Assembly: GCA_002433055.1 (NCBI GenBank)
Contig: DJHJ01000014.1
Span: 191,414 to 255,413, forward strand
Length of the DNA: 64,000 nt
Direction: 5' to 3'
Source: Acidobacteriia bacterium UBA6623
GTDB lineage: Bacteria; Acidobacteriota; Terriglobia; Bryobacterales; UBA6623
In this document: positions 20,506 through 62,371 of the stretch, piece by piece
How the letters are laid out: every line of letters begins with the position of its first letter
Position numbering within the stretch: the first letter of the stretch is position 1
The notes under the pieces: model-generated
Told to the model about the DNA's origin: nothing
Database searches by the model: none
What the model saw: only the letters and a program-made list of their open reading frames with translations
Translations under genes and position numbers: made by a program

Positions 20506-21369
20506 TTACGAAAATTCTTTATTCGCCCTTATCCAGTTTAGGGTGATTTCCAATACTTCTTCCTCTCGTCCTTTGAAATAGTGAGCATCTGCGTCTAGGT
20601 TTCCATTCCTGGTATCATTCAGGAGAAAATATACCAAATCAGAGTTTGCAGCTTCCAATTTTTCTTGAGATGGTGGCAAGGTAGCAGGATAAGGGTCGGC
20701 AGGATCGCGAACCCCAAGAATTTTTCTGTGGGAAATGTTTTTGAGAATATCAATTGGAACTGCCTTACTTTCCGGGCCGCGTTTGTCTAGAAAAATTGAG
20801 TAAGTTTGAAGCAAAGGTATACCACCTTCCACCATGGGTGGTATTAGAAACACATCAGAACCTTGCCCCGATGCTACTTTCTCCTTGGCCTCTTTGACAA
20901 TTTGTTGATATTTTTCTATTCCGCCACAAATCTTTATTGAGCCTGAACGAAGATCGCCAAGTGGTGCGTAGAGAAGCATTGCAGCTACCCTTAAATCATT
21001 TGTTTCCGCAACATAGAAGGGGACGGTCACCGTTCCATAGCTATGACCTCCTAAAATAATTTTCTCTGCACCCTGTGATACTAGAAAATCGATTCCCAAT
21101 CCGTGATCACCTGCTGAAGCAGCCAAGCTGTGAAAGCCAGATTGGGAACCGTGATCACGTCTGTTTAGAGAAAGAGTCATGTAGCCGGCATCAGCTAATC
21201 TTGGCCCCAAAAATAGAAATAATGAATCAAAAAATTCTCCTCCGGTTCCTGGAAAAAGTGCAATCGCCGTTTTGGAAGTACATTCATCGGGTTTCCAGAG
21301 AACGCCATTCAAACACATTTCTTGTTCTGCATCGATGCAAATAAGTTCAGTAGAAATTCTTTTTGACAT
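20506..21369 (-). CDS. Alpha/beta-fold hydrolase
   Basis: 287 aa with the nucleophile elbow GGHSYG and a general alpha/beta-hydrolase layout. Substrate unknown. Confidence 0.65.
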   Translation of the reverse strand: MSKRISTELICIDAEQEMCLNGVLWKPDECTSKTAIALFPGTGGEFFDSLFLFLGPRLADAGYMTLSLNRRDHGSQSGFHSLAASAGDHGLGIDFLVSQGAEKIILGGHSYGTVTVPFYVAETNDLRVAAMLLYAPLGDLRSGSIKICGGIEKYQQIVKEAKEKVASGQGSDVFLIPPMVEGGIPLLQTYSIFLDKRGPESKAVPIDILKNISHRKILGVRDPADPYPATLPPSQEKLEAANSDLVYFLLNDTRNGNLDADAHYFKGREEEVLEITLNWIRANKEFS

Positions 21370-22184: not shown

Positions 22185-23411
22185 GTGCAGATATCAAAAC
22201 AGAGTAGTCTTTCCGTCAATATTACGATTACTTTTGTCGGTTTGTTGATCCTGCAACCGGTTATCGGATCGCAGCGAAAATCAACATTGCGAGATGACGA
22301 AAAAGCTCGATCGTTACTTGTAAAGGTTGCAAACACCTATGCTGACCTTAGGCAATTCTATTTTGAAACGCTTGAGACGACAGAGACACTTTCGAAGGGG
22401 TTTACGCGTAGCAGTCAGGTTCGCTATGTTACTGCAGCTGATGCAGAAGACCGTGCCCGATTTTCTGAATCTAGTACCGTTAATAGTGGTCTAGCAGTTT
22501 TCGATGGCGCAATACATTGGAACCTTGCTCCACTCCTCAGGCAGTATACCCGTCGCAATGCAGCCTCTTCTGTTTTCACTGATGATGGACACAGTGATGC
22601 ACGAGTTGTCGATGCTCGAAAAGCGGCTCTCCGGTATAAAAAACGCTACGCTGCAGTAGCCACTAGACTACTGAGTGCTCGATTTATTAATGGCGAAAAC
22701 TCCAAACGGCAAGTTGGTGTCGAAGCCAGCTATAGCATGCCTGCCGGAATGCCTGAGGGTAAGATTTTTCGTAAATATTGGATTGATACTAAGCTCAAGC
22801 TCGTAACACGTGAACTTTCAATTGCTTCTATTGCCAACCCTAATACGGAACATCCTACTCGAGTTGAACAAGTTATTGCTTTCTCTTCAACAGCAATTGG
22901 TAATGATATCCCCGCCGAGATATTTGTTTTTACTCCCTCTTCTGGAACAGAATTGGTTGAACAATTTGGAGTTACATCAAATTCTGTTTCTAGACTCGCA
23001 AACCGACGTGCCCCTCAGTTTGAATTACAGGGTTTTGACGGGACTACCTATCGCTTACAAGAACTGATTGGCAAGGTAGTTTTACTGGACTTTTGGGCTA
23101 CATGGTGCAAGCCGTGTCGTATCGATTTACCTCACATCGAAGCTCTCTACCAGGAGTTTTCCAGCCAAGGTTTAGTTGTGTTGGGAGTGAACACCGAACC
23201 GAGAGATCGGTCGCAGGCCTTTTTTGAGCATCAGGGGTACTCTTTCCCCAGCCTGGTGGATCTAGATGCCTCGGTGTCACGGCTGTATTTAGTTCGGTCG
23301 ATTCCTACTCTAGTCGTTATCGACCGGGAAGGGAAGATTTCCTCCTATCTCGTCGGACTCTACCCGGAAGAACGTCTACGATCTGAGTTGAGCAAGGTGG
23401 GGATCCGTTAG
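22185..23411 (+). CDS. TlpA/ResA-like thiol:disulfide oxidoreductase with N-terminal LolA-like/unknown domain
   Basis: Signal/TM N-terminus and a C-terminal thioredoxin fold with active site WATWCKPC. GKVVLLDFWATWC and IPTLVVIDREGKI are typical of the redoxin/AhpC-TSA family. Confidence 0.75.
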   Translation: MQISKQSSLSVNITITFVGLLILQPVIGSQRKSTLRDDEKARSLLVKVANTYADLRQFYFETLETTETLSKGFTRSSQVRYVTAADAEDRARFSESSTVNSGLAVFDGAIHWNLAPLLRQYTRRNAASSVFTDDGHSDARVVDARKAALRYKKRYAAVATRLLSARFINGENSKRQVGVEASYSMPAGMPEGKIFRKYWIDTKLKLVTRELSIASIANPNTEHPTRVEQVIAFSSTAIGNDIPAEIFVFTPSSGTELVEQFGVTSNSVSRLANRRAPQFELQGFDGTTYRLQELIGKVVLLDFWATWCKPCRIDLPHIEALYQEFSSQGLVVLGVNTEPRDRSQAFFEHQGYSFPSLVDLDASVSRLYLVRSIPTLVVIDREGKISSYLVGLYPEERLRSELSKVGIR

Positions 23412-23428
23412 GAATCAACTATTCCTAT

Positions 23429-24319
23429 CTATCCCTTTACTTCTACGCCAGCCCAGTCTTCGAGTAGTTTGACAGCTGAGCAAAAATCCTCGTCCCCCTG
23501 TCCGCGTGCAATACTGGCACCGAAAAGTTGATGAACTAGCGATGTGGATGGTAGAGGAACATGCAATTCGTGACCCGAATCGAGCATCAGTCCAATATCT
23601 TTGTGCATCCACTTGAGCGGGAAGGCAGCTTCAAAGTCTCTCTTAAAGATGTAGGGAGCTTTAAAGCTAATCAATCCTGCTTTCGCGGCACTTTTATCGA
23701 GAACCTCGAACATCAGCTTGGGATCAACTCCAGCTTTCTTAGCAAGTACCATGCCCTCAATAAAACCTTGCATCATATTACATAGAACTAAGTTCTGAGA
23801 AAGTTTTGCATGTAGTCCCATCCCTTGTCTGCCGCAATAGAACAGGGTTTTGCCCATGGGTAGAAAATTTTCACGTACACTCTGAAATACTTTCTTGCGA
23901 CCTCCGATCATGAAAGTTAAGGTGCCGCCTTCCGCGCCTGGAGTTGAGCCCGTACAGGGAGCATCCAGAAAGAATGCACCTTTCGTTTCAAATTTTTTTG
24001 CGATGCGACGTGCTACTGATGGAGCGATCGTACTACAATCAGCGATCACCTTTCCTTTTCGAACTCCTTTGAAGACTCCATCTACACCAAGGAGCACCTC
24101 TTCGGACATCTCCGAATTACCTACGCACAGGAAAATGCAGTCTGCAAATTTTCCTACTTCTTTTGGCGTTTTACAAAAAACACCCTTGTGGCTCTTTGCC
24201 AGACGGCGAGCCTTTGCAGCAGTATGACTCCACAAGGCTACCTCATGTCCCGCATCTAGTAAATTGCGTGCCATCGGGTAACCCATCAAACCGAGTCCAA
24301 GAAATCCAAGTTTAGCCAT
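23429..24319 (-). CDS. 3-hydroxyisobutyrate-dehydrogenase-family reductase (tartronate semialdehyde reductase / GarR-like)
   Basis: N-terminal MAKLGFLGLGLMGYPMARNL Rossmann motif, DAPCTGSTPGAEGGTLTFMIGG block, 296 aa. Confidence 0.8.
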   Translation of the reverse strand: MAKLGFLGLGLMGYPMARNLLDAGHEVALWSHTAAKARRLAKSHKGVFCKTPKEVGKFADCIFLCVGNSEMSEEVLLGVDGVFKGVRKGKVIADCSTIAPSVARRIAKKFETKGAFFLDAPCTGSTPGAEGGTLTFMIGGRKKVFQSVRENFLPMGKTLFYCGRQGMGLHAKLSQNLVLCNMMQGFIEGMVLAKKAGVDPKLMFEVLDKSAAKAGLISFKAPYIFKRDFEAAFPLKWMHKDIGLMLDSGHELHVPLPSTSLVHQLFGASIARGQGDEDFCSAVKLLEDWAGVEVKG

Positions 24320-24390
24320 ATAAGTTCCTTCTCCCTTAAGTTTTTCAATTGTACGATCTTATAACCCTATGAGACAATGTCGAACGAATC

Positions 24391-25374
24391 ATGGGTAGCA
24401 GGATTCTAGTTTCAAAACGTATTTATCCCGAAGCTGTGGAGTATCTTTGCGAACGGGCTGATGTCGAATATCATGATTCGGACAAGAGCTATCCAGCAGA
24501 GGAATTACTCAGACATCTTTCTGATAAAGAGGGTGTCATTAGTCAATTGACGGATCGATTTTCCGAAGAAGTGGTGGCGGCTTTACCTTCTTTGAAGGTT
24601 ATCGCCAATGTGGCTGTCGGCTTTGACAATATAGATGTGGAAGCGGCGACAAGACATGGTATTGCAGTAACTAATACGCCGGATGTATTGACGCAGACTA
24701 CTGCAGATTTGGCCTTTGCTTTGCTTTTTGCAGCAGCACGGCGAGTGAGTGAATCCGAGCGTTTCTTGCGTGCTGGTCACTGGCAAGGTTGGGGCATCGA
24801 TCAGTTTTGTGGGTCAGACATCCATCACAGCACTCTGGGTATTCTCGGGATGGGTCGAATTGGCCAAGCCCTGGCTCGTCGTGCAAACGGTTTTGATATG
24901 AGAGTGGTGTATCACGATGCTGTTCGCGCACCTGAAGACATTGAACAAGAATTACGACTCACTTTTGTACCTTTTGAAACTCTCCTCTCCGAAGCTGATT
25001 TTGTTAGCCTTCACGTCCCACTTGTGCCTACGACCCGGCACTTGATGAGTACTCCACAATTCGCGCTAATGAAAAAAACGGCTGTCTTAGTCAATACATC
25101 GCGAGGGCCAGTGATTGATGAAGTTGCATTAGCGGAAGCTCTTGCCTGTGAAGAAATTGCGGCAGCAGGTTTGGACGTTTTTGAAAATGAACCGGACATC
25201 CAACCAAAGTTGCTCGAATTAGAAAATGTTGTCTTGACACCTCATATTGCCAGTGCATCGCATACAACGCGCAGCAAGATGTGCATGATGGCAGCTGAGA
25301 ATGCTCTATCGGCTCTAGCGGGCAATCGCCCCCCAAATCTCATAAACCAAGATCTCTTTCCGGATCTTGGATGA
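24391..25374 (+). CDS. Glyoxylate/hydroxypyruvate reductase (D-isomer 2-hydroxyacid dehydrogenase)
   Basis: GILGMGRIGQALARRA NAD motif, VNTSRGPVIDEVAL, and TPHIASAS with the catalytic His. Confidence 0.85.
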   Translation: MGSRILVSKRIYPEAVEYLCERADVEYHDSDKSYPAEELLRHLSDKEGVISQLTDRFSEEVVAALPSLKVIANVAVGFDNIDVEAATRHGIAVTNTPDVLTQTTADLAFALLFAAARRVSESERFLRAGHWQGWGIDQFCGSDIHHSTLGILGMGRIGQALARRANGFDMRVVYHDAVRAPEDIEQELRLTFVPFETLLSEADFVSLHVPLVPTTRHLMSTPQFALMKKTAVLVNTSRGPVIDEVALAEALACEEIAAAGLDVFENEPDIQPKLLELENVVLTPHIASASHTTRSKMCMMAAENALSALAGNRPPNLINQDLFPDLG

Positions 25375-25383
25375 GTAAAACAG

Positions 25384-26691
25384 GTGAGAATTGTGAAAGA
25401 TGACCTGCGACAGATTTTTCTCCATGCGTTGGAAGACCTTTCGCTTGATAAAGTGATGCCGCGACGCATCAAATGCCAAGCCGATCTACTTATTGTTGGT
25501 GAGGTGCGTGTCGACCTTTCCGAATATCAAAAAATTACTTGCATTTCAATCGGCAAGGCCGCGGTGCAGATGGCAGAACAGTTTATCTGCATTGTCAAAC
25601 CACGTGAAGTTGCTGGGATAGTCGTTAGTCCTGATATACCAGAAAAAACAATACCCAACTTTCTCCACTACAACGGTGGACACCCTTATCCAAATGCAGA
25701 AAGTTTGCAGGCTGCATCGACAATTCTCGAATTTGTTAGTGATCTTAACCGTGAGGATTTAGTTGTCTATCTTTTGTCTGGTGGTGGTTCAGCAATTTGT
25801 GAAAAGCCAATTTCGACGGATATTTCACTTAAAGATCTCCAGGAGTTTTTTCACCTGCTGGTCACATGTGGTGCAAACATCGTCGAGATGAATATTTTGC
25901 GTAAGCATTTTTCTGCCATCAAGGGAGGACGTTTAGCCGAAAGAGCCAATCCCGCTGCTCAGGTGACATTTTATGTTTCGGATGTGCCACTCGACCAACC
26001 TTCGACGGTTGCGTCCGGTCCGACTATGCCTGATGAATCGACTGTTGAAGATTGTTATCAATTAAGCCAAAATCTCAAGTTGGCTGGACAGCTCCCATCA
26101 TCGATCCAGCAGATGTTTGACAAAAAGAAAATCCCTGAAACTCCGTCATTGGAGAGCGAAAACTTCAGTCGAAGTAGTTGGCATATGTTACTTGGCAATA
26201 AAGATGGTGTGGATGTGTTGCACGAACAAGTTACCTCTCGAGGATGGATTGTGGAGCAAGATCTTTCCGTTGACGATTGGCCTTATGAGATTGCTGTTCG
26301 CCATCTTCTGGAGCATTTGGAAAACATGCGTCGAAATAACCCAGGTGAGACTGTGGCGTTGCTGACAGGTGGTGAGTTAAGTGTCCCGGTCATCGGTGAT
26401 GGTATGGGTGGTCGAAATCAAGCATTTGTATTGTCCTGTGTTCATCACATAGCAGGACAGAATATTGCGATTCTTAGTGCCGGCACTGATGGCATAGATG
26501 GCAATTCGCCTGCTGCTGGTGCAGTGGCTGATGGTGAAACCCTTGCTAGGGCTAGTACTGCTGGTATGTCTGTCAGCGATTTCGAGCGTCGTTCAGACTC
26601 TTTTCACTTCTTTGAAAAACTGGATGATCTTTTAATTACTGGGCCAACTGGGAATAATATCCGCGATCTGAGAGTGATGGTGGCCTGGTAG
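25384..26691 (+). CDS. Glycerate 2-kinase (DUF4147 + MOFRL, TtuD-like)
   Basis: 435 aa with SIGKAA, LLSGGGSA, LTGGELSV, GGRNQAF and AGTDGIDG blocks typical of the MOFRL glycerate kinase family. Confidence 0.8.
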   Translation: MRIVKDDLRQIFLHALEDLSLDKVMPRRIKCQADLLIVGEVRVDLSEYQKITCISIGKAAVQMAEQFICIVKPREVAGIVVSPDIPEKTIPNFLHYNGGHPYPNAESLQAASTILEFVSDLNREDLVVYLLSGGGSAICEKPISTDISLKDLQEFFHLLVTCGANIVEMNILRKHFSAIKGGRLAERANPAAQVTFYVSDVPLDQPSTVASGPTMPDESTVEDCYQLSQNLKLAGQLPSSIQQMFDKKKIPETPSLESENFSRSSWHMLLGNKDGVDVLHEQVTSRGWIVEQDLSVDDWPYEIAVRHLLEHLENMRRNNPGETVALLTGGELSVPVIGDGMGGRNQAFVLSCVHHIAGQNIAILSAGTDGIDGNSPAAGAVADGETLARASTAGMSVSDFERRSDSFHFFEKLDDLLITGPTGNNIRDLRVMVAW

Positions 26692-26789
26692 CTGAGATGG
26701 ACGTGTATTTTCGGCGTAATGCCACCAGCACCTTTAATTTTGGCTTCTACTCTCACACCAGTAGATAACCGTACTATTACACTGAAGTA

Positions 26790-27692
26790 ATGATTTGCAA
26801 GTCATGGCGTTGTTCCTTACACGGTGGTCATAGCGGTACGTTCTGCGAACATGCAGAAGGAAGTCTCGAAGAAGTCCTTGAGGCTGCTGTGGTTAATGGT
26901 TACCACACTTTTGGTGTTAGCGAACATGTTCCACGAACTGAATCACGGTTTTTGTATTCGACGGAGCAAGAAAAAGGCTTCACTGTCCAACGCCTTGAGA
27001 AGGAATTTCGGAATTATACAAAAGTAATTGGAGAATTAGCTAATCAGTTTGCTGACCGTCTAATAGTACTGAGAGGGTTTGAAACTGAAGTGGTGCCCAC
27101 TAGTGATTACCGCGAGAGGATGATTGCCTATCGTCAATCGGGTGATTTCGACTACATGGTTGGATCAGTGCATCACGTAGAGGAAGTTTTGATTGATGGA
27201 CCAACTGAGGAGTTCCGACTCATATGCGATGGCTTAGGTGGTCTGGAAGCACTCTCGATTCGCTACTACGAAACGGTGGCTGAGATGATAGAGGTGCTCA
27301 GTCCTGAAGTTGTTGGACATCTTGACCTAGTCCGAAAAAATGCTGATCTTGACGTTAGTCTTGACACTCCTAGAATTCGCCGTGCGGCTGACAGAGCACT
27401 CGAAGCTACTCGTAGTTGTGGTGCCATTCTTGATCTAAATACGGCCGGCTATCGCAAGGGGTTAGGTACACCCTATCCTGCACCATGGTTGGTTAAAAGA
27501 GCGAACACTATGGATATCCCATTTTGCTTCGGAGATGACTCTCATGGGCCGTCTCAGGTTGCAGCAGGCATAGAAAATGGTCGTGTTTATTTACTGGAGA
27601 ATGGAGTGAAAGAAATCACTGTGCTAACTCGACCTGAGGGTTCCGATTCGAGTACCCCGGTCGAAAAGAGAGTGGTGTCCCTGTACGGATAA
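26790..27692 (+). CDS. PHP-domain phosphatase, HisJ/HIS2 histidinol-phosphatase family
   Basis: SLHGGHSGTFCEHAEG...HTFGVSEHVPR, GSVHH, VGHLDL and FGDDSHGP metal-ligand blocks of the PHP family. Confidence 0.72.
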   Translation: MICKSWRCSLHGGHSGTFCEHAEGSLEEVLEAAVVNGYHTFGVSEHVPRTESRFLYSTEQEKGFTVQRLEKEFRNYTKVIGELANQFADRLIVLRGFETEVVPTSDYRERMIAYRQSGDFDYMVGSVHHVEEVLIDGPTEEFRLICDGLGGLEALSIRYYETVAEMIEVLSPEVVGHLDLVRKNADLDVSLDTPRIRRAADRALEATRSCGAILDLNTAGYRKGLGTPYPAPWLVKRANTMDIPFCFGDDSHGPSQVAAGIENGRVYLLENGVKEITVLTRPEGSDSSTPVEKRVVSLYG

Positions 27693-27727
27693 GTTCTGAT
27701 GTCGCGGGCTCCTTGGAGAGCCCTCTC

Positions 27728-28510
27728 CTACAACTTTCGTATGGCTTCAGTGTGTGTTTTCAAAGCTGTTGAGTAAACTCCATAGTCCACGTTGTAGGAA
27801 ATAACGTTGAAACCTACACCTATCCAATCGCGAGCTTGTTCCAGTGTGCTCGGCTGAATACCTGCACTTTTGCCGTGACGCTTTGCTGCATCGGCGACTC
27901 TCTGTAGGGTGTCAACAAAAACCGGATTTTCGAGCTGTCCCACGATTCCCATTGATTGGCTTAAATCGTAGTGGCCCACCCACAAGTTATCGACACCTGG
28001 CAGGGAAGCTATGGCGTCTAATTCATTGAGAGCTTCTGTGCTTTCGATCTGACAGAGGAAGATGTTTGATTCATTGGCCGCAGACATGTATTCCATTGGT
28101 TCTGGCCGGACATAGTCATTTTGTGCTCCACCTAATCCGAGGCCGCGATTCCCGTCAGGCATAAAACGTAGGGCTGCAATAACTTGGCGAGCCTGTTCTG
28201 AAGACTTCACATTAGGGACCATCACACCTTGCGCACCTGCGTCCATCACTCTTGCGATGAAATGGTAGTCCGCGCATGGAACACGCACGATCGGAGTTAC
28301 TGGAGTGCTTTTGAACCATGCTAATAAGTCACAAATGTTGGTGAAGCCGAGACCGCTGTGCTCCATATCAAGTAGGGCGAAATCGACTCCTGACGCCTCG
28401 AGAGTTTTTGCTATTCCTCTGGTCCCAAATTCCATAATCATATGGCCCACTGGGATTTTCCCTTCAGCTAACCGCTGACGAATCAAATTAGATTTCATTG
28501 AGACTTCCAT
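27728..28510 (-). CDS. HpcH/HpaI-family 2-keto-3-deoxy-acid aldolase (GarL/HpaI-like)
   Basis: 260 aa with DMEHSG, VRVP, QIES and HYDLS motifs typical of class II pyruvate aldolases. Confidence 0.82.
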   Translation of the reverse strand: MEVSMKSNLIRQRLAEGKIPVGHMIMEFGTRGIAKTLEASGVDFALLDMEHSGLGFTNICDLLAWFKSTPVTPIVRVPCADYHFIARVMDAGAQGVMVPNVKSSEQARQVIAALRFMPDGNRGLGLGGAQNDYVRPEPMEYMSAANESNIFLCQIESTEALNELDAIASLPGVDNLWVGHYDLSQSMGIVGQLENPVFVDTLQRVADAAKRHGKSAGIQPSTLEQARDWIGVGFNVISYNVDYGVYSTALKTHTEAIRKL

Positions 28511-29538
28511 GAAAGCTTAGCTCGAACACCTGGTCGGTCTACGGCATCACGATTTGCCAGACAATCGGGAGCTTTTCCCTCGTAGACATTCCGTACGTTT
28601 CGGCAAGCGTCGAGAGGTATATCACGGATACTTTCTTCACACCATGCTATCGAGTGGGGGGCAACAACTACATTGTCGAGTCGAAGTAGTGGATTGTCTT
28701 TCGGGACAGGTTCTTTTTCAAAAACATCGAGACCTGCGCCTGCAATTTTCTTTTGCTGTAGCACTTCTATCAGTGCTTCTTCATTGACGATTGGCCCACG
28801 TGCAGTGTTGATTAGGAAAGCACTAGGTTTCATCAATGCAAGCTCCTCGGCTCCCACCAAGCCTTCGGTGTGTTTATTTAACGGTGCATTGATTGTCAAG
28901 AAATCGCTTTCTCGCATTAGGGTCGGTAAGTCGACCAACTCTACGCCCATTTTTTCTGCCTGTTCTTTGGTGACGAATGGGTCATAGCCAATCAAGCCAC
29001 CGAAACCAATTCCACGAGCCATGCGCAATAGCTCTCCAGCGATATTGCCAAGCCCTATCGAACCCAGTGTTCGTCCCTCAATGCATATACTTCTGCATTT
29101 ATCTGGACGCCACTGGCCCGCACGCGTTCGGGTATCGAAGGTTCTTATATCCTTAGCGACAGCCAGAATTAGTGCGATAATTCCCTCTGCTACCGGTCTG
29201 CGTACTGCATTAGGTGTGATCGCCAGTAAGACATCAGCTTCGGTACAAGCAGGAACGTTAATGCGATCGAAACCAACTCCCCAACGAGACAGACAGGATA
29301 GTCGTTTGAGACCTCTAAAGCTTTCTGGCGGAAAATGGTACCCAAGAACTATTAAGGCGTCATAATTGTCGATAATCTCCGGATCAGCAATTCCTCCCGT
29401 ATCGGGGAGTACGTCCCACTTTAGGTTAGGCAGTGCCGTAAAGATTTTTGCCGCTGACTTTTCTGCGGCCTCTGTGGTTTGTGGGTTATCGAATACATCG
29501 GCTGTGAATCCAACGTGAAATGTTTTCTGTATTGACAT
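28495..29538 (-). CDS. D-isomer-specific 2-hydroxyacid dehydrogenase family protein
   Basis: GSIGLGNIAGELLRMA NAD motif, INTARGPIVNEEAL and APHSIAW. It overlaps the downstream aldolase gene by 16 nt. Confidence 0.8.
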   Translation of the reverse strand: MSIQKTFHVGFTADVFDNPQTTEAAEKSAAKIFTALPNLKWDVLPDTGGIADPEIIDNYDALIVLGYHFPPESFRGLKRLSCLSRWGVGFDRINVPACTEADVLLAITPNAVRRPVAEGIIALILAVAKDIRTFDTRTRAGQWRPDKCRSICIEGRTLGSIGLGNIAGELLRMARGIGFGGLIGYDPFVTKEQAEKMGVELVDLPTLMRESDFLTINAPLNKHTEGLVGAEELALMKPSAFLINTARGPIVNEEALIEVLQQKKIAGAGLDVFEKEPVPKDNPLLRLDNVVVAPHSIAWCEESIRDIPLDACRNVRNVYEGKAPDCLANRDAVDRPGVRAKLSWKSQ

Positions 29539-30849: not shown

Positions 30850-32064
30850 TCACCAGGGACGGACGCTCTTTAGGGAGATTATTTCCCCTGTTTCTCGTTC
30901 TGTGATATCTATTTTCTCTCCGTGACATTCTATACTCTCTACCCCTTGGTAACCGTCTGGAATTTCTGTTATGAATGCCAGGTACCGTGCAGTTAAACGG
31001 TTGCGACCTTCGATCCAACGGTATTGACGAACACCGTAGAGTTTCCCTTCATCGACTACTTTTTTCATGGAACCTGCAAATGGCGTCGTTCCAAACTCAA
31101 GACCACGGGCGATGACTTTACCGTTCCACGGGAACACATCAATGCTTTGATTTTCTTGCCAATCGGCAATCCAAGGGAAATCTTCCGTTTTCCATATGTA
31201 CCCAATCAACACTCGAAGATCTTTGTTAAAAGCAGTGAAATAGGATTCTTCTCGAGAAGGATCCATGAGTATTCCATAGTATGTACCAGTGTTGGGTGGA
31301 GCTTGCATTTCTCGAAGACTGACTTTTTTACCCTCGCGCGAAGTTCCGATTGGCCAATGGAGTGGGCCAGCTCGCAATGAGTTGTGGTCTTCGATGGGTG
31401 GACGTACCTCTCCTCGAGTCCCCGACATATCCAGCACATTGCGTCCTGGCGTGACAAAAGGAGGCCCGAACGTTACGTGTTGTACCCAGTGTGCTGGTCG
31501 CCCAAACGCGGTCTGACTCTCGACCCACTCTTCAACATAAAGCACTGTTTCATTGGCTGCCAGTGTTAGTGTGCGGCCAACCTTGTACTGTGTTTTAGGT
31601 AGATAAGTGGAATATGAGAATTGAACTTTGTTCGCAGTAGTCTCGACCTTGTCTTTGTTCCATTGCACCATCAAGGCTTCGCCATGCACACCTAGACCAT
31701 TTTTAAATTCCTGATTTGACGGAGCGCCGAAGAGTGGGAAATTAAGTAAATGACCCATATAGCCGGCTGTGAGTATCCGGTCACTGCCCTTTCCGTATAA
31801 CATGTCATGTTTGATCGGGTTGTAGTTTCCCGGGTCAATCGTTTGGTAATGATGGACCAGCATCGGGTTGACGGACTTGCGAGGATCGTCTGATTTCAAG
31901 CGAATCTCTGCGATGTGTCCGGCGCCGCGTAGCGCTCCAATCCGAACCAATTTGTTTTCCAGAATGTAAGCCGAACGGCCATGAATATGATCTTCAGAGA
32001 ATGTCGTTTTTTGTGCTGCAACGACATTGCATCCCGTGAGAAGAATGAGTAGTACCCTAGTCAT
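30850..32064 (-). CDS. Hypothetical lipoprotein (about 400 aa, function unknown)
   Basis: The internal Met at 32064 gives MTRVLLILLTGCNVVAAQ with an L-T-G-C lipobox. The rest is soluble and beta-rich-looking, with no motif I can name. The ORF is open from 32112. Confidence 0.5.
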   Translation of the reverse strand: MTRVLLILLTGCNVVAAQKTTFSEDHIHGRSAYILENKLVRIGALRGAGHIAEIRLKSDDPRKSVNPMLVHHYQTIDPGNYNPIKHDMLYGKGSDRILTAGYMGHLLNFPLFGAPSNQEFKNGLGVHGEALMVQWNKDKVETTANKVQFSYSTYLPKTQYKVGRTLTLAANETVLYVEEWVESQTAFGRPAHWVQHVTFGPPFVTPGRNVLDMSGTRGEVRPPIEDHNSLRAGPLHWPIGTSREGKKVSLREMQAPPNTGTYYGILMDPSREESYFTAFNKDLRVLIGYIWKTEDFPWIADWQENQSIDVFPWNGKVIARGLEFGTTPFAGSMKKVVDEGKLYGVRQYRWIEGRNRLTARYLAFITEIPDGYQGVESIECHGEKIDITERETGEIISLKSVRPW

Positions 32065-32191
32065 ATCGATTGCATTTGATGTTATAGACTCTAATCTGTT
32101 GAAGGTTCCCATTTCATAGTTGCGGCAAAGTGTTCATATTTTGTGGCTATTTGTGAATTGCGGATAGAGGCAAAGTGTTTTTTGTTGTTAA

Positions 32192-37298: not shown

Positions 37299-38927
37299 AT
37301 GGAAACAATAGACCCGTATTCGCGCTCAACCGAAGAAAGTCGAGAGCCACCATCTGGCTTTTTCGCCACCTTGCGCCACCTGGGCCCTGGAATGATTGTC
37401 GTTGGATCGGTGGTTGGGTCGGGCGAATTGATTGTGACGACTAAATTGGGTGCGGTCGCTGGGTTTGTGCTGCTCTGGTTTGTGTTGCTTTCGTGTTTTG
37501 TCAAGGTTGTTATTCAGGCCGAATTGGCTAGATATACCATTGCTAGTGGTGAAACATTCTTACGAGTATTCAACACCTTACCGGGGCCGACGGCTCCACG
37601 GCCAAAATGGCTAACTCTGCCTTGGATGGCCATACTGACAATTGCCTGTGTCGCAGCTATCACAATCTTTGTTCAACTGAGCAAGGAGTTGAGAACTGTC
37701 CCCGTAGCATTGTTTCTGTGTGGCAGTGTTGCTGTTGTTTCACTGGTAGCTGCTTTGGTGCTTGGATCGCGTCAAGACATCATGGAGAACCCCTCACTCG
37801 CAAAGACATCTTTACCACCTATGAACTGGTTTATGTGGCTTTGGTTGGCATCGACACTGCTTGTTTTTGTCAATGCCGGTGCGATTTTAGGTGGAGCAGG
37901 GCAGGTGTTGGAAATGGTGTTCCCAGGTGCGCTTGGTGTGGGAGGGGCGCGTTATTGGTCAATCATTGTTGCAATTCTGTGCGGTGTTCTGTTGCTCGCT
38001 GGTACTTATACTTCTTTGGAAAAACTACTCATCATATTAGTTGCCGTATTCACCCTACTGACTGTAGTTTGCACCGCAATGGTGCAATGGACTGAATTCG
38101 CTGTAGATTGGTCTCAGCTTGCAAGTGGCCTATCTCTGAGTATGCCTGTCGAGATGTCTACAACGCTGGTACTGACAGCACTAGCCATGTATGCGGGGAC
38201 AGGTGTTGCGTTTGGTGAGATGTGGAATTACACGTATTGGTGCCTAGAGAAGGGCTATGCCCGTAATGCTGGTGCTCCGCGACCAGGAGACGCATGGACC
38301 AATCGAGCCAAAGGCTGGATCCGGGTTATGTACACAGATGTTGGTCTCACCATGGTTGTCTACACCACGAGCACTGTCTGTTTTTATCTCCTGGGAGCTG
38401 CGATTCTCTACGTGAACAGACTCAATCCAGATGGACGAGAAACGATAGTAACGCTTAGTTCGATGTATACCGAAAGTTTTGGTGATTGGGCAGCTGCAGT
38501 ATTTCTTTTGGGTGCTTTTATCGTCCTTCTTACAACTGTATTATCTGGAGCAGCTGCAAATAGTCGCCTCTTGGCTGACGCACTAGGTGTTATCGGAATC
38601 ATCGACGAGTCGGACTATTCAGCTCGCTTACGATTTATTCGCCTCTTTGTGATTGTTTCACTAGTGATGTACTCGATTGCATACTGGCTGTTCGAGAATC
38701 CGCCTCAGATGCTACTCATCACTAGTAGTCTAATTGCGGCTCTCATGTACCCCATTCTGGGGCTAGGAACACTATATCTTCGACATCGTAGACTTGACCA
38801 GAGGGTCAAGCCAAGCTCAGTAACGACGGTATGGCTGTGGGTATGCGCTATCGTATTGGCAGTTATTTCACCTGTCGGAATCGTGTTGGCGCTGGCTATT
38901 AATTACGGTTGGGTAAACTTGGGATAA
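37299..38927 (+). CDS. Nramp-fold permease, long form, lacking DPGN metal site
   Basis: 542 aa polytopic protein. The N-terminal LGPGMIVVGSVVGSGELIVTTKLGAVAGF aligns by eye with Nramp TM1 but has no Asp/Asn ligands. Confidence 0.55.
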   Translation: METIDPYSRSTEESREPPSGFFATLRHLGPGMIVVGSVVGSGELIVTTKLGAVAGFVLLWFVLLSCFVKVVIQAELARYTIASGETFLRVFNTLPGPTAPRPKWLTLPWMAILTIACVAAITIFVQLSKELRTVPVALFLCGSVAVVSLVAALVLGSRQDIMENPSLAKTSLPPMNWFMWLWLASTLLVFVNAGAILGGAGQVLEMVFPGALGVGGARYWSIIVAILCGVLLLAGTYTSLEKLLIILVAVFTLLTVVCTAMVQWTEFAVDWSQLASGLSLSMPVEMSTTLVLTALAMYAGTGVAFGEMWNYTYWCLEKGYARNAGAPRPGDAWTNRAKGWIRVMYTDVGLTMVVYTTSTVCFYLLGAAILYVNRLNPDGRETIVTLSSMYTESFGDWAAAVFLLGAFIVLLTTVLSGAAANSRLLADALGVIGIIDESDYSARLRFIRLFVIVSLVMYSIAYWLFENPPQMLLITSSLIAALMYPILGLGTLYLRHRRLDQRVKPSSVTTVWLWVCAIVLAVISPVGIVLALAINYGWVNLG

Positions 38928-38936
38928 CAAACTTGA

Positions 38937-39974
38937 TTACGGTTTGACAGCACTAATTAGTGCCTTGATATAGCCGACGGTCCAGGCTCGTCCTCGGTGA
39001 CACCACTCTGTATCACCGATCATTCGAGGCACGTGGTCAGGTATCAAAAACCCCTGAAACCCCACTTGTTTGAGTGTCCGAATCGTTTCGACTGGGTCAC
39101 AGTTCCCATCACCCAGGTAGCACTCTGTGAAGTCGTCCACAGGACCTTGAACATCACGGAAGTGAACATAGAAAATCTTATTGCGTTCACCGAAATGGCG
39201 AATGGCGTCTGTAACACCATTGCCGCCTTTCATTTCGGACCAGCAACCATGGCAAAAATCCAAGCCATGCATCGGGCTATTAAATGTTTCCATCGCACGG
39301 CTGAAGTTGTCGAAATTGCGAAATACGCGTCCCACGCCTCCAAGTGAAGCGACAGGGGGGTCATCCGGATGTAGTGCCAGACGTAGGCCTACTTCTTCAC
39401 AAATCGGCAGGATGCGCTCTAGATACCAGCAATAGTTTTCCCAAATCTCTTGTTCCGAATAGTCTCTCCCTATGTCAACACCACCCCACGCACCGAAAAG
39501 ATCTCTACCCTGGCTCGATGAAGTTTCAGTAATCGCACTTGCTGCTAGAGCCGTTTTGTAATGGAATCCTGTCGCTAAAGATCCCCCGCGCACGACTTCG
39601 GCCTGAGATGTTCTCCACACACCGGCAGGCATGAAGGCGTATCCCAGAATGGGGATGCCAGCCCGTGCAATGTTCCGAATTGTATAGATCATGTTGTCGA
39701 GTTGATGTTCCCGACCATCTGCTCCTAGCATAATCTGGTCGTAGAACCTGGTCGGTACATTCTCTATTGCCATTAGCCGGATTTGTGCTTCTTTTGCTTG
39801 GTGAACGAGATTCGCAAGGTCTTCGTATTCCCATTTTTCTTGTCCTGGCAGTATCGGCGTATTCAGTTGAAAGTCATCGCAGCCGCACTGTTTGATGAAT
39901 TTCAGTCGTGCGGTCGTCATTTTCTGAAACTGTCCTAAGGCGACGCGCATAGGGAGGGTGTCAATATTGATCAT
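38937..39974 (-). CDS. uxuA: Mannonate dehydratase-like (UxuA family, TIM barrel)
   Basis: Blocks IRNIARAGIPILGYAFMP..VWRT, EIWENYCWYLERILPICEEVGLRLALHPDDPP, YVHFRDV and LIPDHVP follow the UxuA pattern as I recall it. Confidence 0.7.
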   Translation of the reverse strand: MINIDTLPMRVALGQFQKMTTARLKFIKQCGCDDFQLNTPILPGQEKWEYEDLANLVHQAKEAQIRLMAIENVPTRFYDQIMLGADGREHQLDNMIYTIRNIARAGIPILGYAFMPAGVWRTSQAEVVRGGSLATGFHYKTALAASAITETSSSQGRDLFGAWGGVDIGRDYSEQEIWENYCWYLERILPICEEVGLRLALHPDDPPVASLGGVGRVFRNFDNFSRAMETFNSPMHGLDFCHGCWSEMKGGNGVTDAIRHFGERNKIFYVHFRDVQGPVDDFTECYLGDGNCDPVETIRTLKQVGFQGFLIPDHVPRMIGDTEWCHRGRAWTVGYIKALISAVKP

Positions 39975-58378: not shown

Positions 58379-59563
58379 ATGAAAATCCAAAAAATAGAGG
58401 TTATTACTCTTCGCTTCGAGTATCCATCGGGTAAAGGGTTCCACTGTGCCGGTGGGTACTGTACAGCCCGAGCATCGTCACTTGTGCGAGTACACACTGA
58501 TGAGGGTATTAGCGGGTTGGGGTCTGTGTACTCGCACCCGGATTTGGTCCGTGTGGTCATTGAAGGCCAGTTGGCTCCTATGCTTTGCGGTCAGGATCCT
58601 CTTTTAATCGAGTCACTTTGGGAACGCAATTATAATTTGACGCGCTGGTACGGTCGCAGAGGAGTAGCTATTTCGGCTATCGGAGGAGTCGACATGGCCC
58701 TTTGGGACATTCGCGGCAAGGTCGAAAGAAAGCCTATCTGTGAACTTCTAGGTATTCGAAGAGGTTGCGTTCCAGCGTACGCCAGTGCCTTGCTTTGGCG
58801 TGATGATCCGGTTGAGCTTGAAGAGGAAGCCAAACGCCATCTAGCCAGTGGTTTTCACGCTATGAAGACTCGGTTGGGGCGAGATTTCAAGTATGATTGC
58901 GACGGGCTGTTCAGCTTGCGCAACGCTCTTGGTGAGAAATATCGTTTAATGGTCGACGCCAATGCACGTTATGGTCTGTCACAGGCCGAACGGATGGCAC
59001 CTCTTTTCAATGAAGCAGGAATTTTTTGGTTAGAAGAACCATTTCCTCCCGAGGATTTGGATAGCTATGCTGCACTAAGGTCCAAACTGAAAGTTCCACT
59101 TGCTGCAGGTGAAAATGAGGTCGCCATGATGGATTTTCGTGACTTAATGGAACGTAACTTGGTCGACATTATTCAACCCGATTGCTGTCGTGCCGGTGGA
59201 ATTACAGAGTGTCTGCGTATTGGCCGACTAGCTGCTGAGCAGGGACGTTTTGTGGCAACTCACACCTGGAGTGATGCGGTTGCACTTACGGCGAATCTTC
59301 ATGTGCTCGCAACGCTTGATACTGATGTAATGCTTGAGATTGACCAAACAGGCAATGCATTAATCGAAGACTTGCTGAATGAGAAATTAGAACTGCGAGA
59401 CGGGGAAGTTATCGTTCCCAGAGGTCCGGGCCTCGGTATTTCGCTCAATGAGGATGCATTAGAGCGTTATAGCTATCCCGCTGAAGAATCTTTCCCGGAC
59501 GGTAATTACGCTGACATGGTGTTTGGCGCCGAATACCTAACACCTCCTAACCCTTACAAATAA
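58379..59563 (+). CDS. Enolase-superfamily enzyme (mandelate racemase/muconate lactonising family, sugar-acid dehydratase-like)
   Basis: AISAIGGVDMALWDIRGK, KTRLG, MVDANARY, WLEEP and GENE metal-ligand pattern, plus DIIQPD. Confidence 0.82.
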   Translation: MKIQKIEVITLRFEYPSGKGFHCAGGYCTARASSLVRVHTDEGISGLGSVYSHPDLVRVVIEGQLAPMLCGQDPLLIESLWERNYNLTRWYGRRGVAISAIGGVDMALWDIRGKVERKPICELLGIRRGCVPAYASALLWRDDPVELEEEAKRHLASGFHAMKTRLGRDFKYDCDGLFSLRNALGEKYRLMVDANARYGLSQAERMAPLFNEAGIFWLEEPFPPEDLDSYAALRSKLKVPLAAGENEVAMMDFRDLMERNLVDIIQPDCCRAGGITECLRIGRLAAEQGRFVATHTWSDAVALTANLHVLATLDTDVMLEIDQTGNALIEDLLNEKLELRDGEVIVPRGPGLGISLNEDALERYSYPAEESFPDGNYADMVFGAEYLTPPNPYK

Positions 59564-59816
59564 AAACGCACTCGAAAAACAATTGACTCAATGCAGCATG
59601 GTGGGTTGTTGATTTAATGTTATTTACGTGTGACGATCTGCAGTGTAAATTAAGATCTGAACCAGAGGGGCAAGAGGCTTCTTTTTGTTTTAACACTGCA
59701 AAGCTGTAGGACTGTGGAGTATGTGCGGTCTACAATATAGTCCTGGGTAACCCATATGAGGTTACTGACGATTAGCTACAGTTGTTGATCTTAAAATACG
59801 CAGTCAGGAGAACCCT

Positions 59817-61529
59817 TTGAAACTTGCTTCTTTTTTGTTATTGACAGTTTGCGTTGTCGCGCTTTTGGTTGTTACTACTGTTCGTGGTGAAGAACCTGTA
59901 TCTGAGCGACTAGTGAATGCTGCGAACGAGCCCGAAAATTGGTTGACTTACAACGGAAGTTATGAGTCTTGGCGCTACAGCAAGCTTGATCAAATAAGCC
60001 GACACAATGTCAAGAAGTTGATTCCCGTCTGGTCGTTCCAGCCAGGTATCGTTGACGGGGGACTTCAGGCAACTCCCATTGTTGTTGATGGTGTGATGTA
60101 TCTCACTAGTTCGTTGAACCGTGTTTTTGCTATCGACGCAGCTACCGGCAAAAAAATATGGCAATACTACCACGAGATTGGAGAGTTTCCGTCACTTTAC
60201 GGAACCTGGAATCGCGGTGTGGCTGTTGGTCATGGTCTGGTCTTCATGGGAACGGCAGACAACTACCTAGTGGCGCTTGATGCGGGGTCAGGACGAGAGG
60301 TGTGGAAGGTTGAAATTGAAAATGGTGGCCAATGTGGTTGTGGCATTACCGGTGCGCCCTTGTTGGTTAAAGATAAGGTAATTATCGGAGTGAATGGTGG
60401 AGACTCAGCACACCGTGGTTACTTGAATGCGTTTGACGCTAAGACGGGTCGTCATGTGTGGAGATTTTGGACGATTCCAGGCCCTGGTGAACCTGGTAAC
60501 GAAAGCTGGAAAGGCGACAGCTGGAAATACGGAGGCGGGTCGACTTGGCTGACGGGTTCTTATGACTCCGACCTCAATTTGCTCTACTGGGGTGTAGGCA
60601 ATCCGGCGGCCGATTTTTATGGGGAGGATCGTGAAGGTGACAATCTTTATACCGAATCTATCATCGCATTAGATCCTGACACTGGCAAATTGATTTGGTA
60701 TTACCAGCAAATTCCACATGATGTTTGGGATTTTGATTCGGGCTATGAGATTGTTCTGTTGGATTTGCCATATGAAGGAAAAAAACGCAAGTTAATAGTC
60801 ACACCACATAAAAGTGGATATGTGTGGGTTCTGGATCGTACTAACGGAGAATTTCTCAATGCTTGGTCGTTGGTCGAGAACACGAATTGGATTGAGGGTA
60901 TCGATCGAAAGGGCAGGCTTATAGGTCGAAACGAACCGGTTGTAGGGGAGTACAAACTGCTATGTCCGGGGATCACGGGTGGCCGTCAATGGAACCATGG
61001 TGCTTATAGCCCTAAGACGGGGTGGTTCTATTCAACAGCTTTAGAGTGGTGTCAGCAGATTAAAGCATTTCCTGAAAAAGCGCGGGAAGGAATGAGTTTT
61101 TTTGGTGGTGAATTTAAGCTCGTTCCACCTCCGAAGGAAGAAGCCCATTCTCATCTCAGCGCCTACGACCCTGTAACAGGAGAGCATTTTTGGCGCTACA
61201 AGTCGAAATACCCATTACTAGCCTCACAGCTTGTGACGGCGGGTGATCTGCTTTTTACTGGTGATGCCGAAGGAGAATTTCTAGCCCTTGATACCGAGAC
61301 GGGACAACGACTCTGGTCTTTTCAGACGGGTTCGGGGCACCGCGGATCACCAATCACATATTCCGTTAATGGTAAGCAATATGTTGCTACACCTAGTGGT
61401 TGGGGATCAGCTGTTGCAGGATTATTGCCACAACTGTGGCCCGAGACAGAATACTTTCAGAGTGGTGCTACTCTGTTCGTATTTTCACTGGCCAACTTTG
61501 GTGTTTCAAATGAGGTGAGATCAGAATAA
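59817..61529 (+). CDS. PQQ-dependent dehydrogenase, methanol/ethanol family (non-canonical active-site signature)
   Basis: Signal peptide followed by 8-blade propeller hallmarks: NWLTYNGSYESWRYS, ATPIVVDGVMYLTS, ALDAGSGREVWK, ITGAPLLVKDKVIIG, YLNAFDAKTGRHVWRF, GGGSTW and PHDVWDFDSG. Confidence 0.82.
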   Translation: MKLASFLLLTVCVVALLVVTTVRGEEPVSERLVNAANEPENWLTYNGSYESWRYSKLDQISRHNVKKLIPVWSFQPGIVDGGLQATPIVVDGVMYLTSSLNRVFAIDAATGKKIWQYYHEIGEFPSLYGTWNRGVAVGHGLVFMGTADNYLVALDAGSGREVWKVEIENGGQCGCGITGAPLLVKDKVIIGVNGGDSAHRGYLNAFDAKTGRHVWRFWTIPGPGEPGNESWKGDSWKYGGGSTWLTGSYDSDLNLLYWGVGNPAADFYGEDREGDNLYTESIIALDPDTGKLIWYYQQIPHDVWDFDSGYEIVLLDLPYEGKKRKLIVTPHKSGYVWVLDRTNGEFLNAWSLVENTNWIEGIDRKGRLIGRNEPVVGEYKLLCPGITGGRQWNHGAYSPKTGWFYSTALEWCQQIKAFPEKAREGMSFFGGEFKLVPPPKEEAHSHLSAYDPVTGEHFWRYKSKYPLLASQLVTAGDLLFTGDAEGEFLALDTETGQRLWSFQTGSGHRGSPITYSVNGKQYVATPSGWGSAVAGLLPQLWPETEYFQSGATLFVFSLANFGVSNEVRSE

Positions 61530-62371
61530 TGAAATTTTCAGGATACTATTGGTCGGTTCTGGTTAGTGTTTTTCTAGCCCTGTTTGGTGCGAAGGATTCA
61601 CTGGCACAGACGAAGATTATTGACTTACGAGATCCTGCGTTTGCCTCACTAGGGGCGCCACTATTCGCCAAGAACTGTGCTGTGGGGTACTGCCATGGAT
61701 CAGAGGGTGCTGCAGGTCAAGGTCCACGTCTACGAGGACGCCATTGGAATTCAACCACACTTTTTGAAGTTATACGCGATGGCATTCCCAATACGACTAT
61801 GCCTGGCTGGAGCGGAGTCTTGAACCAAGAGGGCATTTGGTCAATAACGGCTTACATCATTGGCCTGGGGACGGGTACGTTCGAGCCCGCCTCTGGAAAG
61901 CTGGAAATGGGTGAGCGGATTGCGGCCAAAGAACTTTCTTCCAAAGCCAAAAGAGGACGTGCTCTTTTTTTTGATCTGACAAACGAAAAACGGTGTGCTT
62001 TATGCCACCGCATTCGTTCGCGTGGTTCGACCATTGGCCCAGAATTGACTTCGACAACTTCAACAAAATCAGTGGATGAATTGCATCGTGATATCACAGA
62101 TCCAAGCGCTACGATTGCGAGAGGGTTCGAGCAAACAATTGTACTTGTAGCCGATGGAGAACAGGTCTCTGGCATCAAAAAAGACAGTAACGAAGAACGT
62201 ATCCAACTCTACGATACGGCAGCTTTGCCATCTCCGTTACGAACTTTCTACAGGAATCAGATTAGAGGTGTTAGCGGGAGTTCGGTTAGTTCCATGCCGA
62301 CTAGTTACGGTGAGATGTATTCCCCTAGTGAACTCGCTGACATTATCGCCTTCATTAAGTCGGGTGAATGA
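61529..62371 (+). CDS. Two-domain c-type cytochrome (class I-like domain + Pirellula/Verrucomicrobium-type heme-binding domain)
   Basis: Signal peptide. The first domain is FAKNCAVGYCHGSEGAAGQGPRL...TTMPGW. The second domain has CALCH followed by GPELT...DPSA...VADGEQVSGIKK...SSMP...ELADIIAFIKS. The start overlaps the upstream stop (TAATG). Confidence 0.78.
   Translation: MKFSGYYWSVLVSVFLALFGAKDSLAQTKIIDLRDPAFASLGAPLFAKNCAVGYCHGSEGAAGQGPRLRGRHWNSTTLFEVIRDGIPNTTMPGWSGVLNQEGIWSITAYIIGLGTGTFEPASGKLEMGERIAAKELSSKAKRGRALFFDLTNEKRCALCHRIRSRGSTIGPELTSTTSTKSVDELHRDITDPSATIARGFEQTIVLVADGEQVSGIKKDSNEERIQLYDTAALPSPLRTFYRNQIRGVSGSSVSSMPTSYGEMYSPSELADIIAFIKSGE

Follow-up and report, generated by a model that had tools for sequence, protein, structure and literature searches.

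Apart from the dehydrogenases that depend on pyrroloquinoline quinone (PQQ), we know of no well-established lanthanide enzymes, and metagenomic surveys assign lanthanide dependence by a D-x-D motif alone. One described type, PedH/ExaF ("PQQ-ADH type 2b", ADH for alcohol dehydrogenase; 6zcv, 6zcw), is a soluble periplasmic eight-bladed propeller with a separate c-type cytochrome as electron acceptor, and the metal ligands of PedH are Glu199, Asn281, Asp323 and Asp325 (PMC11845868). The XoxF enzymes (6dam, 4mae), among them the acidobacterial XoxF3, are likewise periplasmic and cytochrome-linked, and their genes usually neighbour xoxG and xoxJ (PMC10875860). The type II quinohaemoprotein ADHs (1kb0, 1yiq, 1kv9) have their haem domain fused to the dehydrogenase. 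Here we compare with these enzymes an uncharacterised PQQ dehydrogenase gene of the methanol/ethanol family, located at 59817..61529 (+) in a 64,000-nucleotide stretch of Acidobacteriia bacterium UBA6623 (contig DJHJ01000014.1, positions 191,414 to 255,413; hereafter the window). It belongs to an acidobacterial clade that lacks the disulfide ring which textbook mechanisms put on the electron path, and that pairs the D-x-D motif with non-canonical ligands. Taken as a whole, we think it rather probable that the gene codes for a periplasmic lanthanide-type PQQ dehydrogenase, which would pass electrons to a dihaem cytochrome c of its own.

The open reading frame (ORF) of 570 amino acids is a genuine gene and its family membership is established. 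It matches Pfam PF01011 (E=2e-94; 317.7 bits for a cut-off of 26.7) and NCBIfam TIGR03075 (547.9 bits over residues 28-531, above the curated cut-off of 480.05). A Shine-Dalgarno-like AGGAG (59806..59810, +) can be read in the sequence 6 nt ahead of the TTG start. The N-terminus, MKLASFLLLTVCVVALLVVTTVRG, follows the n-h-c scheme of signal peptides, and homologs have equivalent hydrophobic N-termini; we predict a Sec signal peptide at residues 1-24 (59817..59888, +), with a putative cleavage site behind it. The nearest solved structure by sequence is the lanthanide-dependent PedH of P. putida (6zcv; E=2e-108, 36-37% identity), with the Ca-type quinohaemoprotein ADHs next in score and XoxF, ExaA and MxaF behind them; PedH is again the top match if a relative without the vicinal cysteines (P0130) serves as query. 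An AlphaFold2 model of the dehydrogenase (pLDDT, the predicted score of the local distance difference test, 75.7; predicted template modelling score, pTM, 0.82) superposes in Foldseek with template modelling (TM) scores of 0.84-0.85 on PedH and 0.82-0.85 on methanol dehydrogenase, XoxF and ExaA. The protein is, by prediction, a soluble periplasmic eight-bladed PQQ-dependent enzyme of a type already known, with a variant active site.

The most direct evidence on the destination of the electrons is a gene that the initial annotation of the dehydrogenase missed. Directly downstream, at 61529..62371 (+), lies a gene for a dihaem cytochrome c of 280 amino acids with a signal peptide, whose ATG overlaps the stop codon of the dehydrogenase by one base (TAATG). 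The cytochrome matches PF13442 and TIGR02603. Its N-terminal domain is of the cbb3 type and carries CAVGYCH, a CX4CH haem-attachment motif (61676..61696, +) that about 58 of 62 homologs have in the form CxxGYCH. Its C-terminal domain, the one that matches TIGR02603, has the CXXCH motif CALCH (61994..62008, +), and this half of the protein resembles PDB 7zs0 (E=1e-18). Against the PedF-type c550 profile the cytochrome scores 37 bits, for a cut-off of 122. A cytochrome homolog stands directly downstream in 56 of the 68 related loci with room for one, and 2.4-2.8 kb downstream in three more. The overlap of start and stop codons together with this adjacency makes the dihaem cytochrome the likely electron acceptor, and we regard the conserved two-gene module as the strongest evidence on the electron route, which likely runs from the dehydrogenase to the dihaem cytochrome c. 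A CX4CH site is known as a minor variant in multihaem cytochromes, and is seemingly unusual for a cbb3-type class I domain.

Residue equivalences were taken from HMMER alignments to PedH 6zcv, XoxF 6dam and the Ca-type quinohaemoproteins 1kb0 and 1yiq, in which the chain numbering of 6zcv agrees with the published ligand numbers of PedH. All the motifs on which the initial annotation was built (SLYGTWNRG, GGQCGCGITGAP, GGDSA, GGSTW and WDFD) are present where it had placed them, and most of its assignments stand. WDFD (60726..60737, +) contains the catalytic Asp305 and, two positions on, the lanthanide-type Asp307; both align exactly with D323 and D325 of PedH and with their counterparts in XoxF. 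At this second position XoxF 6dam has an Asp (WDYD), in contrast to the Thr (WDYT) of the Ca-type 1kb0 and 1yiq. Since Asp307 is the extra Asp that marks the lanthanide-dependent XoxF, ExaF and PedH, a light lanthanide is predicted as the metal over Ca2+, and the dehydrogenase probably uses a lanthanide. The substitution of the Glu ligand was likewise recognised correctly: GGDSA (60396..60410, +) aligns with the GGE of PedH, and Asp196 replaces Glu199 with its carboxylate retained. By contrast, the Asn ligand was sought in the wrong motif. GGSTW (60534..60548, +), read before as an altered GGTNW, aligns with the GGxxW of PedH, XoxF and the quinohaemoprotein ADHs, and its Trp244 is the PQQ-stacking tryptophan, not a metal ligand. 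In methanol dehydrogenase structures the Trp of GGxxW stacks on PQQ. Alignment and residue counting identify Asn262 in GNPAADF (60597..60617, +) as the true Asn ligand, equivalent to PedH Asn281. The metal site is thus altered as claimed in respect of the Glu, but Asn262 and Asp305 are conserved.

The vicinal cysteines of MxaF, XoxF and PedH correspond to the loop SLYGTWNRG (60192..60218, +). Counting back from the conserved NRG, the pair falls on Leu127-Tyr128 and not on Y128-G129, with Tyr128 at the site of the second Cys. The loop is free of cysteine, as had been noticed, and there is no Cys between residues 13 and 172 of the dehydrogenase, so that a vicinal pair is absent. The PQQ contacts of the family we take to be Arg109, Thr159, Trp243, Arg331, Asn394 and Trp476 in MxaF numbering. 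A lack of PQQ-binding residues had been named as a reason to abandon the assignment; Arg133 (of NRG), Thr178 and Trp244 are kept in the alignments. Lys332 in HKSG (60807..60818, +) occupies the site of the PQQ-binding Arg, where the quinohaemoprotein ADHs have a Lys too. The contact Asn is Gln391 in the dehydrogenase and Ser in most of its clade, and Leu468 in PLLAS (61212..61226, +) replaces the contact Trp of PedH, XoxF and MxaF. Cys383 and Cys412 (60963..61052, +) correspond in the alignment to a pair of cysteines in XoxF 6dam and probably form a second disulfide; the equivalent pair is presumably the second disulfide of methanol dehydrogenase.

Conservation of these residues was assessed in the best 120 cluster representatives of more than 7,900 relatives retrieved by protein search, all of them at least 64% identical; the named members come from metagenome-assembled genomes of Acidobacteria, Bryobacterales or Terriglobia. 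R133, W244, N262, D305, D307, K332, C383 and C412 are each found in all 120 relatives, D196 and L468 each in 119, and position 128 is Tyr in 113 and Phe in five. The conservation of each feature over the 120 representatives exceeds chance and shows a property of the clade instead of a quirk of one gene. The motifs VGNPAADF and P[YH]DVWD[YFW]D find relatives in 548 or more species-level genomes; nearly all of these belong to Acidobacteriota, and most to Bryobacterales. The best named relatives of the cysteinyl-tRNA synthetase of the window are Bryobacterales and Acidobacteria as well. The host is a marine acidobacterium related to Bryobacterales, and the dehydrogenase gene is at home in that lineage. 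PQQ dehydrogenase paralogs with 36-53% identity to the query form adjacent groups of two or three in some acidobacterial genomes (L072 3403-10210; L080 3719-7677; L078), in line with the very large repertoires reported for Acidobacteria; tblastn found no second paralog in the window.

The deviations of the active site are real, yet they are less rare than the initial annotation implied. For comparison we used a library clustered at 50% identity and took from it 150 representatives, whose identity to the query in the matched stretches is 36-70%. About 79 of these diverse relatives have the vicinal Cys-Cys and about 72 do not, and some 60 of the other Cys-Cys-less proteins are without any Cys pair. 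An Asp occupies the Glu-ligand site in 45 of the 150, with an enrichment in the proteins that lack the Cys-Cys (37 versus 8), and D-x-D is present in most, regardless of clade. From this spread we conclude that environmental family members recurrently show each of three states: a lost ring, an Asp in place of the Glu, and D-x-D. The claim of an uncharacterised clade is supported. In a neighbour-joining tree of 129 sequences, a crude one with few references, the query falls in a deep Cys-Cys-less clade apart from PedH, XoxF and the quinohaemoproteins. The combination of a missing Cys-Cys with DYD/DXD has already been described in marine thaumarchaeal quinoproteins (PMC7300363) and restated in a review (PMC11845868), and many D-x-D PQQ dehydrogenases have been catalogued from marine and soil Acidobacteria (PMC11996626; bioRxiv 10.64898/2026.07.10.737718). 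In the literature open to text search we found no mention of the CxC loop, of the Glu-to-Asp ligand or of the CX4CH cytochrome, and neither TIGR04528 nor the term "empty quinoprotein" turned up there.

Not every member of the superfamily has the vicinal disulfide ring. The membrane glucose dehydrogenase presumably lacks it, and so, reportedly, does the Pseudogluconobacter PQQ-ADH 4cvb, a structure ascribed to Rozeboom and co-workers in 2015. The structures 4cvb, 4mh1 and 7wmd are much more distant from the query (220-231 bits) than PedH (366 bits). With PedH the query shares the propeller type, an identical WDFD, the Asn of GNP, the stacking Trp, the PQQ-contact Arg and Thr, and a separate c-type cytochrome as acceptor. 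It differs in Tyr128 for the Cys-Cys, Asp for Glu, Lys for the PQQ-binding Arg and Leu for Trp; it has a CxC pair and the Cys383/Cys412 pair, neither of which occurs in PedH; its partner is a dihaem protein with CX4CH and not a PedF-type c550; and it stands in a separate deep clade. The extra Asp and the second Cys pair (C383/C412) are common to the query and XoxF, which however possesses what the query lacks (the Cys-Cys ring, the Glu as ligand, the Arg and the Trp), is placed elsewhere in the tree and is usually accompanied by xoxG, a monohaem cL-like cytochrome, whereas the neighbour of the query is dihaem and a xoxJ is missing within 10 kb. The type II quinohaemoprotein ADHs resemble the query in the Lys at the Arg331-equivalent and in passing electrons to a c-type haem, but have a fused haem domain, the Ca-type D-x-T, the Cys-Cys ring, the Glu and the Trp, in each of which the query differs. 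An assignment to this last type was rejected: the dehydrogenase ends at residue 570 without a CXXCH or a fused C-terminal cytochrome c domain, and its cytochrome is a separate gene. The Ca-dependent methanol dehydrogenase MxaFI was discarded too, as Asp307 stands where Ala (non-Asp) is expected and no mxaI small-subunit gene is found near the dehydrogenase. Closer in character are the marine thaumarchaeal quinoproteins, which have no ring and some of which carry DYD/DXD (PMC7300363). The acidobacterial "empty" quinoproteins (TIGR04528, acido-empty-quinoprotein group A) are homologous to the query over their full length, and by score form a different clade.

A further peculiarity of the clade is the pair C173-x-C175 in GGQCGCGITGAP (60324..60359, +), in the loop that enters the next blade. 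As the initial annotation observed, the CGC stands directly ahead of the TGAP block (here ITGAP); it lies three residues before the PQQ-contact Thr178. The loop belongs to the blade adjoining that of the Cys-Cys loop, and a location near the mouth of the active site is plausible. The mature dehydrogenase has only four cysteines, two of which correspond to the XoxF pair; this leaves C173 and C175 as partners for each other in the oxidising periplasm. Most likely they form a small stabilising disulfide that would stiffen the loop at the active-site mouth. Of the 120 relatives, 112 have Cys at both positions and eight have Gly at both; never is one Cys found alone. The eight Gly-Gly representatives (P0083, P0087, P0089, P0096, P0101, P0102, P0109 and P0115) constitute one tight subclade with 93-100% mutual identity, a natural "double mutant" that bears on the role of the motif. 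In this subclade QGGG stands for QCGC and all other active-site residues are kept, including Y128, D196 and DxD, and the CX4CH/CXXCH dihaem cytochrome still follows 5 nt downstream (loci L090 and L091, 4001-6503). CxC or CxxC is limited to the clade of the query and its nearest neighbours (CHC in P0121, CRC in P0123, CAC in P0129, CGC in P0175, CxxC in P0127). The nearest relative with a CHC motif, the sister P0121 (52% identity), lacks the cytochrome neighbour (L086 1-7786; also L087 and L088). Its gene lies among those for a TonB-dependent receptor, a second PQQ propeller, an NHL-repeat protein and an LVIVD-repeat protein, a setting unlike that of the clade of the query.

Under the reading that we favour, an alcohol, an aldehyde or a sugar hydroxyl would be oxidised at a PQQ-plus-metal centre, with the metal held by Asp196, Asn262, the catalytic Asp305 and Asp307. 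Tyr128 would probably lie over PQQ opposite Trp244, in place of the vicinal disulfide ring, and electrons would leave to the dihaem cytochrome, whose gene follows downstream in translational coupling, and would then enter the respiratory chain. Read from the alignments and gene neighbourhoods, the signature of the clade comprises Tyr in place of Cys-Cys, Asp in place of Glu and Leu in place of Trp, together with a CxC loop and an apparently dedicated dihaem cytochrome. However, we also have to consider what weighs against this reading. The PQQ contacts are changed at two sites, where Leu468 replaces a Trp and Ser or Gln391 an Asn. The metal site is non-canonical with its shorter Asp, and the D-x-D rule, whose calibration comes from Glu-bearing enzymes, may not hold for it. 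AlphaFold2 confidence is low at the ligand loops 195-197, 263-266 and 387-389, and the positions of Tyr128 and of the CxC pair relative to PQQ derive from the sequence register alone. In nine of the 68 related loci there is no cytochrome within 6 kb. A Pfam scan confined to 40 large ORFs in the window revealed no pqq biosynthesis genes; some Acidobacteria take up PQQ through PqqU and lack biosynthesis genes (PMC12124388). Function is a prediction throughout this uncharacterised clade.

Where the vicinal ring is missing, its role could have passed to the CxC pair, as was suggested when the CGC was taken for an altered electron exit; a strained Cys173-Gly-Cys175 disulfide would then be required for electron transfer from PQQH2 to the cytochrome. 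Such a relay would fit the joint retention or loss of two residues that are the sole unpaired cysteines of the mature protein, their closeness to Thr178 on what seems to be the same face as the Cys-Cys loop, and their confinement to the Cys-Cys-less clade around the query; CXC disulfides are moreover small, strained and redox-active. The Gly-Gly subclade, however, lost the pair and kept its cytochrome, which suggests that CxC is not an obligatory electron relay, and its joint loss is a single evolutionary event, so that the evidence from covariation is thin. P0121 has the motif without the cytochrome neighbour, and a Cys pair of any kind is missing from roughly 60 other relatives without Cys-Cys. 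We therefore regard the relay as quite unlikely, and the former proposal is weakened; Tyr128 appears likelier than CxC as the stand-in for the ring over PQQ. A wider hypothesis, that this large acidobacterial clade rebuilt its active site by three linked changes (a Tyr lid with a strained C-x-C on the neighbouring blade instead of the vicinal ring, a shorter all-Asp/Asn metal cradle and a dedicated dihaem cytochrome with its first haem on CX4CH) for lanthanide-dependent oxidation, is in our opinion improbable. If true, it would represent a distinct, co-evolved solution for electron exit and metal binding among PQQ enzymes, serving oxidation in lanthanide-poor seawater and soil, and the Asp for Glu would shift lanthanide affinity or selectivity.

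A further alternative concerns the metal. D-x-D has little discriminating power if it occurs in most of the 150 relatives across clades, an ocean survey finds heterogeneous metal motifs inside families (PMC11996626), and Glu-to-Asp alters the coordination sphere; D-x-D might be merely ancestral here and the enzyme might use Ca2+ or another metal. Because the extra Asp accompanies, and is needed for, lanthanide use in all tested enzymes (PMC11845868; PMC11996626), because the Ca-type structures 1kb0 and 1yiq have Thr in its place, and because D307 is invariant in the 120 relatives, we consider this unlikely. More radically, the propeller may no longer bind PQQ and may have a binding or scaffold role, as the name of TIGR04528 suggests for some relatives. 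This family is the second-best NCBIfam match of the dehydrogenase and a full-length one, the scanned ORFs of the window include no pqq genes, and the Cys-Cys, the Trp at 468 and the Asn at 391 are all changed. But the match (440.6 bits) stays far below the cut-off of 650, as do those of ten relatives (281-449 bits), in contrast to TIGR03075, whose cut-off is passed; no variation is seen in the catalytic Asp, in three metal ligands, in the stacking Trp or in the Arg, Thr and Lys that contact PQQ; and a translationally coupled cytochrome c fits a redox enzyme only. We deem an empty propeller very unlikely. Least credible to us is a methanol dehydrogenase of the XoxF3 type. XoxF3 is common in Acidobacteria (PMC10875860), and the acidobacterial source, the D-x-D and the Cys383/Cys412 pair would agree with it, but the query lacks the vicinal Cys-Cys, reads DFD and not DYD, scores higher with PedH than with any XoxF or MxaF, and branches in the tree in a deep clade apart from XoxF. 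No xoxJ-like or periplasmic binding-protein gene occurs within 10 kb, and the cytochrome is dihaem, not XoxG-like.

The lanthanide-type dehydrogenase with its cytochrome leaves the kind of system unchanged, that of a periplasmic quinoprotein and a c-type cytochrome. The clade is nevertheless abundant, with thousands of protein clusters in acidobacterial genomes of soil and ocean, and bears on the validity of the D-x-D rule outside the canonical site, on the purpose of the vicinal disulfide and on the carbon substrates that abundant Acidobacteria use in the periplasm.

Upstream of the dehydrogenase, on the same strand, lies a gene of the enolase superfamily (58379-59563; mandelate racemase or sugar-acid dehydratase-like), whose best NCBIfam match, arabinonate dehydratase, is far under its cut-off. 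A terminator-like hairpin with a T-run (59664..59684, +), from a consensus scan only, is situated between the two genes and suggests that the enolase-family gene is a separate transcription unit. We considered this dehydratase as a clue to the substrate, by way of aldose oxidation, and rejected it, as such a gene occurs within 6 kb in only three of about 80 loci, on the opposite strand, and the hairpin intervenes. The Rfam scan of the operon and its leader gave no match, and the promoter scan nothing over shuffled background. The remaining genes of the neighbourhood are housekeeping genes.

Three ORFs of the window have no Pfam match at E<=1e-5 (4284-6755, +, 823 aa; 20506-21369, -, 287 aa; 30850-32112, -, 420 aa). 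Genes of sugar-acid and C3 metabolism are spread over 6788-8497, 23429-29538 and 38937-39974, and comprise an IlvD/Edd dehydratase, a 3-hydroxyisobutyrate-dehydrogenase-like gene, two 2-hydroxyacid dehydrogenases, a glycerate-kinase-like gene (DUF4147/MOFRL), an HpcH/HpaI aldolase and a UxuA mannonate dehydratase; a link between them and the periplasmic dehydrogenase is speculative. In several relatives AhpC/TSA-redoxin genes, thiol-disulfide oxidoreductase-like, stand a few kb from the dehydrogenase-cytochrome pair (L002-L004 11435-13048; L090 7267-7836; L091 9067-9669), while in the window the closest one, at 22185-23411, is not near. A clear NRAMP metal transporter gene and a divergent gene for an NRAMP-like permease are located at 8511-9758 and 37299-38927, 21-50 kb from the PQQ gene; in Acidobacteria NRAMP genes have been reported beside XoxF3 (PMC10875860). 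A gene of the di-haem cytochrome c peroxidase/MauG family is found at 1310-2389 (-).

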